Both the position numbers and the translations under genes were made by a program. Of a stretch of DNA of 18,977 bases, positions 10,199 to 16,736 are shown in pieces; the first letter of the stretch is position 1; every line of letters starts with the position of its first letter. The stretch is from an uncultured candidatus Porisulfidus sp. (GTDB lineage: Bacteria > Pseudomonadota > Gammaproteobacteria > Poriferisulfidales > Poriferisulfidaceae): the NCBI GenBank assembly GCA_965199755.1, contig CBDASZ010000004.1, positions 1-18,977 of the forward strand, written 5' to 3'. Under the pieces are notes generated by a model. That model did no database searches. It was not told where the DNA came from and saw nothing but the letters and a program-made list of their open reading frames with translations.

Positions 10199-11164
10199 TC
10201 AGGCCAGGTAGCGCACCAGCGCAGACCCCCAGGTGAACCCGCCACCGAAGGCCTCCAGCATTAGAATATCCCGGTCGCGGATGCGGCCCTCCCGGATCGC
10301 CGTATCCAGCGCCAGCGGCACCGAGGCCGCCGAGGTGTTGCCGTGGCGATCGACCGTGATCACCACCTGCTCCAGCGACAAGTCAAGTTTGCGGGCGGTC
10401 GCCGCGATAATGCGGAGATTGGCCTGATGCGGCACCAGCCAGTTGACCTCATGGCGGTCCATGCCGTTGGCTTCCAGTGTCTCCTCAACGATCCGCTCAA
10501 GCGTGGTCACCGCCATGCGGAACACTTCGTTGCCCTGCATCTCAATGTACTGGCCGATGTCGCGCTCGCCGTCGCCCGGCGGCACCTGCAACAAATGGTT
10601 GTAACTGCCGTCCGCGTGCAGATGCGTCGACAGAATGCCTGGCTCCTCGCTCTCCTGCAGCACGATGGCACCTGCGCCATCGCCGAATAGCACACAGGTG
10701 GTGCGGTCGGTCCAGTTGACCAGTCGCGACAGCACTTCTGAGCCGATCACCAGCGCCACCCGCGCACCGCCGGTGAGAATGTGACGGTGGGCGATGTCCA
10801 GTCCGTAGACAAAGCCGCTGCAGACCGCCTGCACGTCAAATGCCGGTCCGCCGTGAATGTCGAGCAGGCGCTGCACCTGACAGGCGGTGCTGGGGAATTT
10901 CTGATCAGGCGTGGTGGTCGCCAGCACAATCAGGTCGACCGCGTCGGCCTCGAGACCGGCCATGTCCAGCGCCTCTTGCGCTGCCTGCGCCCCCATGTAA
11001 GCGGTAGTTTCGCCCTTGTGCGGGTCGGCGATGTGGCGCTGCAGAATGCCGGTACGCTCACGGATCCACTGATCAGTGGTGTCGACGAAGTCTTCCAGTT
11101 CCTCGTTGCGCACAATCTGCTCAGGCAGAAAGGAGCCGGTGCCGGAGATTTTCGTGTAGGTCAT
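10199..11164 (-). CDS. fabH: 3-oxoacyl-ACP synthase III
   Basis: AVCSGF catalytic Cys, PHQAN His, GNTSAAS Asn, FGGGFTWG. Confidence 0.97.
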
Positions 11165-12195
11165 GAGTCTTGTGTCTGGCGGGTGTTCAAAAGCGGCTCG
11201 ATATGTTGCTGAATGTGCGTCGGCACATTGCGCCGCGCCGCCTGTTGGGCAGCGCGAATCGCTTGCGCGAAAGCCGTCGCATCTGCTCCTCCATGACTTT
11301 TGATGACCACGTGACGCAAACCCAGTAGATGTGCACCATCATACTGCCGCGGGTCCACGCGGTGGCGAAAACGGCGCAGCAATGGTGCGGAAGCCAGTAG
11401 CGCCAGACGCGGATACAGGCCGCGTTTGAACTCGCCTTGCAGAAAGCGGCTGAGCATACGGGCCACGCCTTCCGTGGTCTTGAGCGCGATGTTGCCAACA
11501 AAACCGTCACATACCACCACATCCACTTCTCCGCAATAAATGTCGTCGCCCTCGACATACCCAATATAGTTGAGGTCCGTGTCGCGCAACAAGGCATCCG
11601 CCTGTTGCACTTGCCGGTTGCCCTTGATCGCCTCCTGTCCAACATTCAGCAAGCCGATGCGCGGACGCGCAATGCCTTCGAGTTCCGCCGCCAGCACCGA
11701 ACCCATTACCGCGAATTGCAGCAACCGCTCCGCGCGGCAGTCGACGTTGGCCCCCAAATCCAGAATATGCGTGCGTCCGTTCAGCGAGGGCATCGTGGTT
11801 TCAAGGGCCGGACGATCAATGCCGGGGAGCATGCCCACCACCGAATGCGACAGCGCCACCAGTGCGCCGGTATTGCCAGAACTGACAAAGGCTTGCGCCT
11901 GGCCCTGCGCGACCATCTCCAGGCCGCGGCGCATGGAGGAGTCCTGCTTGCCGCGCAGCGCGTTGAGCGGCGACTCGGCCATTTCGATGCGTTCGGAGGC
12001 ATGCTGCACCAGCAGATGCGCATGATCGACCGCGCCCAGCGTCTGCAGGCGCTCGCAAATGAGCGGCTCATCGCCGACCAGTAACAGACGTAGCGAGGCG
12101 TCTTCGTTGATGCAATTGACCGCGGCCGGCAGTACGCTGTCGATCCCGTGATCGCCACCCATCACGTCCAGCGCGATTGTCAGGGGATCGGTCAT
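11161..12195 (-). CDS. plsX: phosphate acyltransferase
   Basis: [37 protein letters not shown]; lies between rpmF and fabH. Confidence 0.97.
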
Positions 12196-12229: not shown

Positions 12230-12439
12230 TCAGCCGTCGGTTTCGGAGTTCTCTTCCGGTTCCGGCTGCTTGATGTCGAAGATCTGGCGACCGCGATAGA
12301 AACCATCGGCGGCGACGTGATGACGCCGGTGCCAGGTCCCGGTGGTGGGATCCTCAGAGAGAGTGGCGCTGCTAATCGCATGGTGCGCACGGCGCATGTC
12401 CCGCTTCGAGCGGCTTTTGCGGCTTTTCTGAACAGCCAT
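12230..12439 (-). CDS. rpmF: 50S ribosomal protein L32 (69 aa, no Zn-binding cysteines, acidic C-terminal tail)
   Basis: [19 protein letters not shown]...HRRHHV..DGFYRGR; start at ATG 12439 inside the longer track ORF, with AGGAAGAG upstream. Confidence 0.95.
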
Positions 12440-12617
12440 GATGATGCTCTTCCTGTTGCTCTGCCAGCCAGCGCGCCACAGCGCGCCTGTTGCGAGGCTT
12501 GTTGTAAATCGGAATGCTATTGTACGGGATACGGTTGAGGCGCTTGTCACGGTGTGCGGTGTTGGGCGTTATGGGATTTGGCGGATCAGCGGTGCGGGGA
12601 GCCATGTTGCGCATCAT

Positions 12618-12808
12618 GTCACCCACGCGGGTAACGGTGACGGTCTGTGGTGCGCTCCAGGTGGTCGCGGTGAACGTCAGCGCACCAGAGGCCGTGGCGG
12701 CATCCGTGTCATCACTTGATGGCGTGATGGTGACCGGACCGTCGGCTCGGTGTCCAGCACCACCGTGTAGGTGGCGGTGTTGCTTTCTTCCACCTCCAGC
12801 ATCAGGGG
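12618..12808 (-). pseudogene. frameshifted remnant of one Calx-beta/Ig-like surface-adhesin repeat
   Basis: Two frames join as PLMLEVEESNTATYTVVLDTEP(T)/GPVTITPSSDDTDAATASGALTFTATTWSAPQTVTVTRVGD, with a 1-nt frameshift near 12741. TYTVVL and LTFT..W..PQTVTVT are typical of this repeat type. Confidence 0.75.
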
Positions 12809-12865
12809 GGCTATGAGCCGAATAAGCCCCAAATATCAGGCTCAAATCGCCTGCCAGTGCACGCT

Positions 12866-13115
12866 GTTGCTGCCGAAACACAACTCAGGCATCAGAATGC
12901 TCCGACTGTTCGCGGCGGCAACCCGGGTCGGGCAAGCCCGACGGGACTCGCGTTTGAAGTAGCGAAACAGATTGCTGCGGTGCCGCGAGGAGAACCTTCC
13001 TCTAACTGCATGGGCCACAGCGTGAGCCATGTTGGCCGACATTTGCAACTCACAGCGCCAATATAGAAATGCCAAGGATTTCTGCACAACCGGAACACCC
13101 TGATGCCTGAATCTT
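12866..13115 (-). ncRNA. putative IS110-associated structured RNA (bridge/seek-RNA-like) downstream of the recombinase
   Basis: Uninterrupted 24-bp closing helix 13087-13110/12885-12908 (19 Watson-Crick plus 5 G-U pairs, complete only on the minus strand), enclosing two sub-domains; followed by a UUCG hairpin at 12866-12884. Confidence 0.7.
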
Positions 13116-13120
13116 GTAAT

Positions 13121-14293
13121 TTACAAAGGCGTCGTTCCCACCTCCGCATCCCCGCAACGCGGAATTTCGTGGCACACAATATCCCAGACAAAGCCGGTCA
13201 ACTCCCGCGCGATCGCGACGCATACGACCTTCTGACTCTTGCCGGCGTCCAGCAATTCCTGATAGCGTCGACACAGGCGCTGCTGCGCCTTCCAGGCTAC
13301 CGCCTGTGCGTGCGCCGAAGAGCGCGCATCATCCGTCTTTTGCGCCATATAAGCCGTCTGGCGCGCCGGGAAGCGATAGCACCAGCCCGCCTCCACTAGC
13401 ACCCGCCGGGCGTGCTGGTTGCCCGCCTGCGTCACCCCGCCGGTGCGGCGACGCTCACCGGAACTGTAAATGCTCGGCACTAGACCCAAATACCCCATCA
13501 GACGGGTGGGCGACTCAAAGCGCGTCAGATCGCCTAACTCTGACAGCAGCGTGGTGGATGACAACTGATCAAAACCGCGCAAGGCCATCAGGCTGTTCAC
13601 CACCGGGGCCCAAGACCACTCTCCGACCAGCAGGCGCAACTTGCGATCAATTTCCGAAATGCGGGAGTTCGACAGGCGCACCGCCGCAATGTATTCGTCA
13701 CGCGCTTCATTTTGCGCGGCGTATGGAAAGGACAACGATTCCAGCCAGCTGAAGTGCTTGTGCGTCCAGCGTTTGCGGTTGCTCGGCCAGTGATGCCCAT
13801 GACGCAAGGCGAAGGCATTCAGTTGCTGGCGCACAATCTGCCCCTGCATCTTGAAGTCGCTGCGACAACGGCACAAGTCCCGAATCGCCTCCTGCTCCTG
13901 ATCAGGGATCCACACCGGGCGCAATTCACCAGCGCGCAACAGGCGCGCCAGACGCAACGCATCTCTAGGGTCGGTCTTGATGCGGGCGTGCCGCGGCGGC
14001 ACCACCACCTGGCATTCAAAGCCCAGCGCCGTCAGCGTCTTGTATAGCGCATATCCGGTGGGACTCGCCTCATAACAATACAGACACGGCTGCGCCAAGG
14101 CGCTCAACCGCTCGGTCATATCAGTGACCGCCTCGGTGTTATTCGCGATGGTGTCGAAAAATTCCGGCTCCTCGCGCCCCGCCGCCGCGGTCGCCACCGC
14201 AATGCTGTTCTTGTGGACATCCATGCCCACATACAACGCATACTGCTGGAGAGACGATGCGGCCTGCACTTGCGTGCCCTCGCGCGGCGGCAT
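13121..14293 (-). mobile_element. IS110-family DEDD transposase/recombinase (390 aa)
   Basis: YVGMDVHK (D25), CYEASP (E75), IKTDPRDA (D108, D111); C-terminal domain ELGDLTRF...YLGLVPSIYSSG (S278)...GNQHARRVLVEA...VAIAREL. Confidence 0.93.
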
Positions 14294-15120
14294 TAGTCCA
14301 TCGACTGCTTCGCCGCAGAGTCCAGCCGAAGGAGCGTCTCCAGAAGGGCGCGCATGCGCTGCAGAGGCCAGGCATTGGGGCCATCACTGCGCGCTTCGTC
14401 AGGACGCGGATGAGTTTCCATAAACAGCCCCGCCACCCCAACGGCGACAGCCGCACGCGCCAGTGCCGGCACGAATTCACGTTGTCCGCCAGACGCATTG
14501 CCCTGCCCGCCGGGCAGTTGCACCGAATGCGTCGCGTCGAACACGACTGGACAGCCTGTCTCGCGCAGCACCATCAGCGCGCGCATATCAGACACCAGAT
14601 TGTTGTAACCAAAACTCGCACCGCGCTCACACACCATCAGGCGCTCACCACCACCCGCGCGCGCTTTCTCCACCACCGGCAACATCTCCCAGGGCGACAG
14701 AAACTGTCCTTTCTTCAGATTCACCGGACGACCGCTTGCCGCGACCCGCGCAATGAAATCCGTCTGCCTGCACAAGAATGCCGGCGTCTGCAACACATCC
14801 ACCACCGACGCCACCTCATCCACCGGCGTGTCTTCATGCACATCGGTCAGCACCGGCACCGAGAACTGTTCCCGCACTCGCTGCAGGATGCGCAAGCCTT
14901 CCTCAATCCCAGGACCGCGAAAACTTTGGCCGCTGGTTCGGTTCGCCTTGTCAAAAGAGGCCTTGAAAACATAGCGCAGGCTCAACTCTTGAGTCAACTC
15001 ACTCAGGTGTTGTGCGACTTCCATCACCAGCGCCTCATCTTCAATCACGCATGGCCCGGCGATCAGAAACAGCGGCTGCTTGCAGCCGGCCGTGAAGTCA
15101 CAGAACTCAACGGCGCTCAT
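14293..15120 (-). CDS. kdsA: 3-deoxy-8-phosphooctulonate (KDO8P) synthase
   Basis: [42 protein letters not shown]; ATGA overlap with pyrG. Confidence 0.98.
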
Positions 15121-16736
15121 GCGACCGTCCGCGCCGCCTCAATCAGGCTGTTGAACAGCGGGTGTCCGCGCCGTGGCGTGGAGGTGAACTCCGGGTGGAA
15201 CTGGCAGCCAATAAACCACGGATGATCACGCAACTCAATGGCTTCCACCAGTTGATCGTCGTGTGACCGCCCGACCACCGCCAGACCATTGTCGGTCAGA
15301 CGCGCGACATAGTTCGCGTTGATCTCATAGCGGTGCCGATGCCGTTCGTGAATCAGCGCCCCATCGTAAATCCCGTGCAATTGCGAGCCTTCCTGAAGCA
15401 GGCAAGGCTGCTCGCCCAGACGCATGGTGCCGCCCAGATCCGCGTGTGCGTCGCGAAATTCCCGCTCCCCTTCAGGCGTCATCCATTCGGTGATCAGCGC
15501 CACCACCGGATGCGGCGTGTCGGGATTGAACTCAGTACTGTGCGCGCCCTCAAGACTCAAGCACTGACGCGCGTAATCAATCACCGCGACTTGCATGCCC
15601 AGACAAATGCCAAGGTACGGAATCTTCTTCTCACGCGCGTAACGCGCCGCTAGAATCTTGCCCTCAATGCCGCGCTCGCCAAACCCGCCCGGTACCAGAA
15701 TCACATGCGCACCCTCCAGTTGCGCGACGCCTTCCTGTTCGATCTGCTCGGAATCCACATAGCGAATAGTCACCCGCACCCGATGACACAGCCCGGCGTG
15801 CTGCAGCGCTTCGTTCAGCGACTTGTAGGATTCGGTCAGATTGACGTACTTGCCCACCATTGCCACCACCACCTCGTCTTTTTGCGCCTTACGCGCCGCC
15901 ACCACCGACTGCCATTCAGACAAGTTCGCCGCCGGCAACTCCAGACCGAAACGACGCACCACGATTTCATCGAGGTGCTGCGCGTGCAGCGCCAGCGGAA
16001 TCGCGTGAATGTCATCCTGATTCAGCACTTCGATCACGGACTCAGGCGCGACGTTGGTAAACAGGGCGATCTTGTCGCGCTGCTCTTGCGGAATCGGCAT
16101 ATCGGTGCGACATAGCAAGATGTCCGGCTGAATGCCGATCGAGCGCAACTCCTTGACCGAATGCTGGGTCGGCTTGGTCTTGATCTCGCCCGACACCTGA
16201 ATGTACGGCACCAGCGTCAGATGCAGATAGGCCGCCTGCGTCGGCCCCATCTCCCCGCCCATCTGGCGGATCGCCTCAATAAACGGCTGTGACTCAATAT
16301 CGCCGACGGTGCCGCCGATCTCAACAATGCACACGTCCGCGCCGGCCGCACCCATTTCAACACAGCGTTTGATCTCGTCAGTGACGTGCGGGATCACCTG
16401 CACAGTAGCGCCTTCATAACCGCCCTTGCGCTCACGCGCAATCACCCGCTCATAGATCTGTCCGGTGGTCCAGTTGCTCGCCTTGCTGGCGCGAAAATTA
16501 ACGAAACGTTCGTAATGGCCCAGATCCAGATCAGTCTCGGCCCCGTCCGCAGTGACGAACACCTCACCGTGCTGAAACGGACTCATGGTGCCCGGATCAA
16601 CATTGATGTACGGATCCAGTTTGATCATGGAAACGCTAAGCTCACGCGCCTCCAGAAGCGCGCCGAGCGACGCCGCCGACAAACCCTTGCCCAGCGAAGA
16701 TACCACCCCACCCGTGATGAAAATGTATCGCGTCAT
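15117..16736 (-). CDS. pyrG: CTP synthase
   Basis: [50 protein letters not shown]. Confidence 0.99.

Follow-up and report, generated by a model that had tools for sequence, protein, structure and literature searches.

An IS110-family recombinase with a guide RNA as a candidate domesticated porin-inversion switch in Candidatus Porisulfidus

In a stretch of 18,977 nucleotides (nt) from an uncultured Candidatus Porisulfidus sp. (hereafter the window), the gene of a recombinase of the IS110 family begins where kdsA ends and is directly followed by a structured RNA, which raises the question of whether the pair is a mobile insertion sequence (IS), the remains of one, or a system that has been taken over by the host. 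The window comprises all of contig C4 (CBDASZ010000004.1) in an assembly of 1.39 Mb, four contigs and 58% guanine-cytosine content that is rated 98.9% complete; this genome, the smallest of the genus, is referred to as G000, and the 15 other genomes of the genus as G001-G015 (16 in all). The reading favoured here, with a probability of roughly 0.6, is that of a domesticated recombinase of the bridge/seek-RNA type, inherited vertically and kept in single copy in this genus of sponge symbionts, which together with the guide RNA 3' of its gene would serve as an inversion switch of porin genes. The parts of this reading differ in strength. Domestication as such, in the sense of a single copy without ends and under selection, appears very likely, inversion of porin genes as the mechanism is rather probable, and current activity in G000 is somewhat doubtful.

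The 390-amino-acid (aa) open reading frame (ORF) matches the Pfam families PF01548 (DEDD_Tnp_IS110; residues 22-157, 58.3 bits vs a cut-off of 29) and PF02371 (Transposase_20; residues 234-305, 63.6 bits vs a cut-off of 21.3), as well as the NCBIfam model NF033542, 'IS110 family RNA-guided transposase' (225 bits vs a cut-off of 140). As described in the initial annotation of the window, which was made from the letters alone, the frame is uninterrupted, the YVGMD motif follows soon after the ATG (it begins at codon 21) and the catalytic residues D25, E75, D108, D111 and S278 are intact. Indeed, in an alignment of 12 sequences these residues fall in invariant or nearly invariant columns, S278-G279 corresponds to the SG motif, and the sole departure at D25 belongs to the sequence P0078, not to the window protein. 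A single-sequence search of PDB with the recombinase gave no match, and a profile of the clade retrieved 9t56 (ISCro4, E 6e-8) and 8wt6 (IS621, E 2e-7). DNA and protein searches both found one copy of the recombinase in G000. One orthologue each, with 66-74% aa identity, is present in 12 of the 15 other genomes (13 of 16 with G000, the 13 genus loci or species of all counts below); the search found none in G005 and G010 and only distant, 26%-identical matches in G011, and in G010 and G011 the 'missing' gene may be due to an assembly gap. More distant IS110-family copies (~50% identity) also occur in G015 (C1:1562327-1563376, locus L019), where the copy is broken over several frames, and in G006 (C39, L018). 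The genus recombinases form a monophyletic clade (support 100/100), in which G000, G014 and the database protein P0001 (89% identical) make up one subclade, and G000 and G014 are sisters both in the recombinase tree (100/99) and in the kdsA tree (90/95). Purifying selection on the gene, which the initial annotation had implied, is evident from ratios of nonsynonymous to synonymous divergence (dN/dS) of 0.02-0.10 in the 30 closest pairs and 0.137 for G000-G014, which are comparable to the low values of kdsA (0.02-0.17, with 0.10 for G000-G014).

The RNA that lies directly after the recombinase stop is conserved over ~230 nt in the 13 species and consists of a long closing stem (13090-13109 paired with 12886-12904 in the window) and two arms, A and B. 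Its structure was obtained from an alignment of the 13 species with RNAalifold, and a covariance model, R1, was built from the same 13 sequences. Compensatory changes are found in 28 of the 65 predicted pairs, against 10.6 +/- 2.2 in shuffled alignments (0 of 500 reach the observed number) and 2-8 in slid controls, which substantiates the structured RNA that had been noticed behind the gene. The proposal that this is a guide RNA accompanying the recombinase is likewise supported, as R1 homologues stand 3' of the gene in mobile relatives: in a set of 77 such loci from many phyla, whose proteins are 42-55% identical, R1 matches directly after the recombinase gene in 61 (E 7e-24 to 6e-7).

No consistent pattern emerged from a search for 8-mers shared between the RNA and the sequences flanking it, and a loop rule taken from the mobile relatives was used instead. 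In arm A of these relatives, six variable nt precede a fixed CUA on the 5' side of the internal loop and four variable nt precede a fixed UAG(A) on its 3' side. The ends of the elements were placed by their subterminal repeats, and flanks and loops were then compared in 23 distinct mobile loci. The right flank (6 nt past the terminal AG) and the reverse-complemented 5' loop agree on average at 4.09 of 6 positions, compared with 1.70 upon permutation (0 of 2000 permutations reach 4.09), with matches at five or more positions in 12 of the 23 loci; the left flank (4 nt before the left TAG) agrees with the 3' loop at 1.9 of 4 positions (permuted 1.22, 0 of 2000). Since its loops track the flanks, arm A is taken to be the target-binding loop. 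In the genus no part of the RNA is better conserved than the two sides of this loop (mean pairwise identity 0.96 on the 5' side and 0.86 on the 3' side), whereas the loops of arm B, which corresponds to the donor arm, vary most (0.34 and 0.20). Arm B of the mobile RNAs holds a word equal to the right end of the element, which is TATCAG in 40 of 56 distinct RNAs; this word is present in 0 of the 13 genus RNAs.

By the same rule, the arm A loops of the genus yield the consensus target CAATTAGAAATGC, and a site predicted to pair with them, CAATTAGAAATGG, is found at codons 4-8 of porin genes that are present in multiple copies. In detail, the rule yields CAAT-TAG-AAATGC for eight species, CAGT-TAG-AAATGC for G000 and close variants for the rest. 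The genes concerned belong to a family of 630-aa Gram-negative porins in which the N- and C-terminal parts are conserved and the middle is hypervariable, and the site encodes P-F-L-I-A in the signal peptide. In G001, G007, G012, G003, G008 and G009, C[A/G]ATTAGAAATGG flanks the recombinase on both sides, in inverted orientation, at porin 5' ends. All matches with 0-1 mismatches to a 19-mer spanning the site lie at most 4 kb from the recombinase in these same six genomes, and a reversed-pattern 19-mer used as a control has 0 matches in the 16 genomes. Furthermore, G005 and G011, which lack the orthologue, also lack the site in the 19-mer search, though porin genes are present in 16 of 16 genomes. 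The porin family is also a main cause of assembly breaks in the drafts of G002, G004, G006, G010 and G011, many of whose contigs start or stop inside its genes. Defence or toxin-antitoxin-like genes occur in or beside the porin-recombinase locus in G006 (L025), G012 (L027), G004 (L028) and G002 (L030); they include an AbiEi antitoxin domain protein, a small antitoxin-like ORF, a small ORF upstream of the recombinase and an ATPase-like gene.

The arrangement of these porin genes points to inversion between species. At most loci the site of one porin copy is immediately preceded by a ribosome-binding site and ATGAAAAAA, and the other copy or copies read ...GTAGAAAACA... at the same place, without a start codon; identity between the copies starts a few bases before CCATTT. 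Such a pair of one expressed and one silent copy, with inverted sites in the 5' coding region, is seen in G001, G007, G012 and G003. The ATG-bearing porin end is always on the upstream side of the recombinase, and the central segment has the order expression end, recombinase, RNA, BRCT-domain gene, silent end. Relative to the outer genes, this segment has the same orientation in G001, G007 and G012 and the opposite one in G003 (and with respect to the left flank of G008). A polymorphism at the start of the gene body, AATTG-CTTTGG or AATCG-CCATGG, goes with the outer flank and not with the ATG (G012, G003, G008). Because the first polymorphic bases of the body follow the outer flank, the exchange can be placed within ~17 nt, AAAANACCATTTCTAAT, which is the predicted site.

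In the mechanism that these data suggest, the complex of recombinase and RNA would pair with CAATT-AG-AAATG in two porin 5' ends and invert the DNA between them, and a different porin body would thereby acquire the only promoter and start codon, giving rise to surface variation. For the second site, recognition would probably fall to another copy of this target loop, a step that is proposed because the donor guides have been lost. Put in its most specific form, the system would be a bridge-RNA recombinase owned by the host, with its donor function discarded and with two synapsing target-loop complexes that invert the DNA between identical 13-nt sites, amounting to RNA-programmed phase variation of porins in an animal symbiont; this version is put forward tentatively, at somewhat less than even odds. 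The initial annotation had suggested the shuffling or inversion of surface-protein repeats as a host function. The comparative data do point to the inversion of surface-protein genes, with the difference that the likely target is the 13-nt site in the porin signal peptide and not the adhesin-like fragment beside the RNA.

Several observations weigh against this reading. With regard to recognition, no description of recombination between two target-loop complexes was found in the literature, and a conserved donor guide was sought in arm B of the 13 genus RNAs and none was found, nor any second mode of recognition. The outermost base of the guide is mismatched at the site (C predicted, G found), and in G013 the guide and the site agree at no more than 9 of 13 positions. 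When the 13-mer derived from the RNA was searched for across the genus without bias, it gave 15 matches, 10 of them at porin 5' ends, and because the reversed 13-mer control has 12, the total is no excess and it is the placement of the matches, not their number, that is telling. With regard to inversion, G008 and G009 have an ATG on two porin copies, the mapping of the crossover relies on three genomes (G012 vs G003 and G008), and homologous recombination between the inverted porin repeats of ~900 nt could in principle produce inversion at the species level. At the porin locus of G000 no inversion was seen in two raw DNA runs, whose depth of ~1-5x would neither reveal nor exclude it; Logan contigs of two further runs end ~20 nt inside each site, as at any repeat entry with k=31, and the two 'opposite strands' joints in Logan contigs lie inside porin gene bodies, in one contig each. 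As for descent, the synonymous divergence (dS) of the recombinase exceeds that of kdsA in close pairs (e.g., 0.64 vs 0.08 for G001-G006), so that strictly vertical inheritance is unproven; the excess in G001-G006 may reflect exchange or older alleles at the recombinase locus, or a recently shared kdsA. Lastly, the recombinase lies away from porin genes in G000, G014 and G015, and in G000 both porin 5' ends lack an ATG and resemble the silent type, with frameshifts or stops in the gene bodies; a search of the assembly, with the completeness of 98.9% given above, for a porin 5' end of the expression type found none.

The porin copies of G000 deserve separate consideration, as they bear on whether the system still works in the genome of the window. 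There are two, in convergent orientation, at C1:329464 (plus strand) and C1:332730 (minus strand), spanning C1:329461-332736 (L131:2960-6240). Each 5' end carries a site, which is CAATTAGAAATCC at C1:332718 and, at C1:329464, the reverse complement of CAATTTCTAATTG; in the sense of the guide the two sites read CAATTAGAAATTG and CAATTAGAAATCC and match the G000 guide at 11 of 13 positions if a G-T pair is allowed. The two copies are 94.5% identical over the first 416 nt past the site and 87% beyond. In one of the copies, contigs assembled from short-read sponge metagenomes are shorter than G000 by 1, 1 and 10 nt, at L131:3108, 3124 and 3192, and because of these small indels some of the breaks in the G000 porins may be effects of assembly or strain. 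Two better-matching target candidates in G000, C1:873832 and C2:40881, have unremarkable contexts and are probably chance matches. Since both porin copies look silent and broken, present activity in G000 is uncertain: the unit might act on the porin copies in trans, or it might be a recently orphaned system that is still intact.

The initial annotation had drawn attention to the short space available for a left IS end, and this turned out not to be the unusual feature. Mobile relatives present in multiple copies are 1.54-1.83 kb long, begin with (T)TAGAC ~110-170 nt before the conserved protein core and carry subterminal inverted repeats, e.g., ATGTTTTGACCTG / CAGGTCAAAACAT, of which the right one lies 25-45 nt past the RNA. 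A layout with a short left end, a long right end and long subterminal inverted repeats is reported, in passages of PMC11208160 and PMC11187229, for IS1111-type elements and some IS110 subgroups. Because mobile relatives with a 3' RNA share this layout, a short left end alone is ordinary, and normal in the IS110 subgroup with the guide RNA 3' of the gene. What is anomalous is that subterminal inverted repeats are missing at either end. Indeed, such repeats were found in 0 of the 13 genus loci, where the best 12-mers have 1-2 mismatches and share neither position nor sequence, and the canonical repeat was recovered with 0-1 mismatch in five of seven control loci, and it was also found in many loci of the guide-rule comparison; a TAGAC start of the mobile type was sought at the genus loci as well, and none was found. 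Together with the single copy in G000, the missing ends bear out the suggestion that the element is immobilised. In eight genus loci the position of the right end is taken by a convergent gene that ends ~25 nt past the RNA and encodes 312 aa (L024:9568-10503 in G001, and orthologues), with repeated LIADGKI-type motifs in its N-terminal part and a weak BRCT-like domain at its C-terminus (Pfam E 0.0011, below the cut-off; partial NCBIfam matches to the BRCT ends of LigA and DnaQ). This neighbour may be an accessory factor; a tblastn search found no such gene in G000. Among the mobile relatives, one locus from a metagenome-assembled genome of Candidatus Azophilus (L090) has tandem copies with two RNAs 1.5 kb apart, and Halomonas sp. 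HK25 (L077/L078) has a 166-nt internal duplication of the right end.

The position behind kdsA, from which the question started, is a local feature. The minus-strand letters at the junction are ...GGACTAATGCCG, where the TAA of kdsA (14295-14293) overlaps the ATG of the recombinase (14293-14291) as TAATG, exactly as first annotated. A GTG at codon 9 (14269-14267), with GAGGG upstream, is an alternative in-frame start; given these two candidates, the true start lies 0 or 24 nt past the kdsA stop. No promoter-like site was found between kdsA and the recombinase ORF, and the terminator-like matches in the span of the two genes fall within both coding sequences, with none at the junction. In G000 the recombinase is probably read from the pyrG-kdsA transcript, via the TAATG overlap or the GTG 24 nt later. 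The order pyrG-kdsA-recombinase-RNA-rpmF-plsX is common to G000 and G014, and in G014 a gap of ~60 nt separates kdsA from the recombinase ATG, in contrast to the overlap in G000. In the other 11 species the orthologue lies away from kdsA, and in nine of these porin genes are no more than 6 kb away. What the initial annotation had put at its centre, the coupling to kdsA, is present in G000 yet derived, belonging to the G000/G014 lineage only.

This also changes how an empty site is to be read. Finding one in close relatives had been named as a sign of an ordinary insertion, and kdsA is indeed without an adjoining recombinase in 14 of the 16 genomes; it is no proof of ordinary insertion, because the orthologue sits elsewhere in those genomes. 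The assumption that eno usually follows kdsA does not hold for the genus, as a convergent mgtE stands there in three of the four relatives translated (G001, G015 and G009, not G005), and kdsA and plsX are ~150 kb apart in G001 and G007. For these two reasons the location in G000 is taken to be a rearrangement junction and not an insertion into an intact site. Coupling to kdsA arose late and in one lineage only, as the result of a relocation: a rearrangement in the G000/G014 lineage would have put the gene-RNA unit between kdsA and rpmF-plsX.

These data allow the alternatives to be weighed. A still-mobile and highly target-specific IS with unconventional ends, whose few targets per genome would keep it in single copy and which would occasionally move or be exchanged between species, is considered unlikely. 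Its location does vary by lineage (at kdsA in G000/G014, elsewhere in G015, between porin genes in most others), the recombinase dS is higher than that of kdsA in close pairs, and the family is RNA-guided and site-specific according to passages of PMC11187229 and PMC11208160. The lack of the subterminal repeats and TAGAC start of mobile relatives speaks against mobility, however, as do the predicted target sites beside the recombinase, which are uninterrupted and hold no insertion, and the donor-arm loops, which are unconserved and without the right-end word of 40 of 56 distinct mobile RNAs; moreover, the recombinase and kdsA trees agree where both are resolved, and the location in G000 is the rearrangement junction described above, not a simple insertion.

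It is improbable, too, that the locus is the relic of an ordinary IS110-family insertion that has lost its ends and is undergoing neutral decay, the intact frame and the overlap with kdsA being accidents of genome reduction. Such a relic would have no IS ends, as found, and would fit the smallest genome of the genus with its compacted intergenic DNA (the TAATG overlap vs the ~60-nt gap in G014) and the broken look of the G000 porin targets, which leave nothing obvious for the unit to do. Neutral decay is nevertheless difficult to reconcile with the intact orthologues of 13 genomes, whose dN/dS (0.02-0.14) is at the low level of kdsA and which retain all catalytic residues; with RNA stems that are maintained by compensatory changes, G000 included, and unpaired target loops that are the most conserved part of the RNA; and with the retention of the gene in both G000 and G014 after the move, across a dS of ~1.3. 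Least probable of all is a Piv-like host invertase working without RNA guidance, in which the RNA would be kept for another role (e.g., regulating the recombinase) and the match of loop and site would reflect the old target of the ancestral IS: protein-only relatives that invert pilin genes (Piv) are reported in passages of PMC11187229 and PMC11208160, and no donor guide is identifiable in the genus RNAs, but the guide nucleotides are near-invariant in 13 species while nearby loops drift, as expected only if pairing with the site matters, and in 23 mobile relatives the target varies along with this loop.

The domesticated, RNA-guided system favoured here shares features with several known ones. 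IS621 and ISCro4 are remote homologues, as detected by profile, and have a two-arm RNA whose guides, in internal loops, surround a core dinucleotide; they differ in being mobile, in carrying the RNA in the left end and in using both target and donor loops. Hin/Gin and the Rci shufflons are serine- or tyrosine-recombinase switches of surface genes in which sites are recognised by protein only; inverted sites, alternative gene bodies and a single fixed promoter and start are common to them and the porin loci, and the enzyme chemistry is unrelated. Piv/MooV inverts a pilin gene in Moraxella. Here the likeness comprises an IS110-related DEDD recombinase, inversion near the 5' end of the coding region of a surface-protein gene, an expressed and a silent gene body, and a recombinase gene beside or inside the invertible DNA. 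Full-text literature searches found no guide RNA described for Piv, and the genus system differs in its conserved guide RNA with a site-matching loop and in targeting porins, not pilins. The Piv group also forms a different branch with proteins of 315-330 aa, according to a passage of PMC11187229, as against the 390 aa of the genus protein.

IS1111-type elements, with their 3' noncoding region and subterminal repeats, have the same protein family, the same RNA fold 3' of the gene and the same target-loop logic, and a short left end is normal there, as stated in passages of PMC11208160 and PMC11187229. The genus loci differ from them in having neither subterminal repeats nor TAGAC, in the single copy across the genus, in the degenerate loops of the donor arm and in a predicted target that stands uninterrupted beside the element instead of being split by it. 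IS1111 transposases are 330-350 aa long, in the account given in part of PMC11187229; because 390 aa exceeds this range, the clade may belong to the IS110 subgroup with a downstream noncoding region that the same part of that paper describes.

The coordinates of the window features are collected in Table 1. On the minus strand the gene order of the window is accA, tilS, pyrG, kdsA, the 390-aa ORF, ~680 nt without a long gene, rpmF, plsX, fabH, uvrC and pnp. Scans of the window found no Rfam family at gathering thresholds and no tRNA. A 169-aa ORF at 12372-12881 was rejected as spurious, as it overlaps rpmF. The decayed 'adhesin fragment' of the initial annotation does contain a frame break and has no Pfam match, so that its identity as an adhesin is putative. 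Its peptide reads …TYTVVLDTEPT / GPVTITPSSDD…TFTATTWSAPQTVTVT…, it lies between the RNA and rpmF, and it is absent from the equivalent place in G014.

Table 1. Features of the window around the recombinase gene (positions in the window)
Feature	Position	Strand	Basis or remarks
pyrG (CTP synthase), first gene of the upstream operon	15117-16736	minus	Pfam CTP_synth_N and GATase
kdsA	14293-15120	minus	Pfam DAHP_synth_1; C-terminus aligns with that of G014 kdsA
IS110-family DEDD/Ser recombinase, 390 aa	13121-14293	minus	PF01548, PF02371, NF033542
Bridge/seek-type RNA, long closing stem and arms A and B	12879-13116	minus	Alignment, RNAalifold, covariation
Arm A internal loop, 5' side, CUUG-GCAUUU-CUA	13058-13076	minus	Antisense to right flank of target (predicted)
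Arm A internal loop, 3' side, CCAUG-CAGU-UAG-AG	12995-13013	minus	Sense of left flank and core of target (predicted)
Arm B, equivalent of donor arm	12912-12986	minus	Stems kept, loops not conserved; extra hairpin in G000
Short repeat-like fragment with frame break ('adhesin fragment')	12579-12805	minus	Translations; no Pfam family
rpmF (L32)	12230-12439	minus	Translation
plsX, after rpmF	11161-12195	minus	Pfam FA_synthesis

In passages of PMC11187229 and PMC11208160, bridge and seek RNAs are presented as parts of selfish IS and as engineered tools, and Piv invertases as protein-only systems; a host-domesticated IS110 recombinase with its guide RNA retained did not turn up in full-text literature searches. 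The prediction made here is testable, as it comes down to a 390-aa protein, a 230-nt RNA and a 13-nt site. If it is true, RNA-guided recombination would have been adopted for a cellular function, and recombination between two target sites would exist in nature, with a bearing on how these enzymes set their direction. For the uncultured sponge symbionts themselves, it would provide a concrete mechanism of surface variation.

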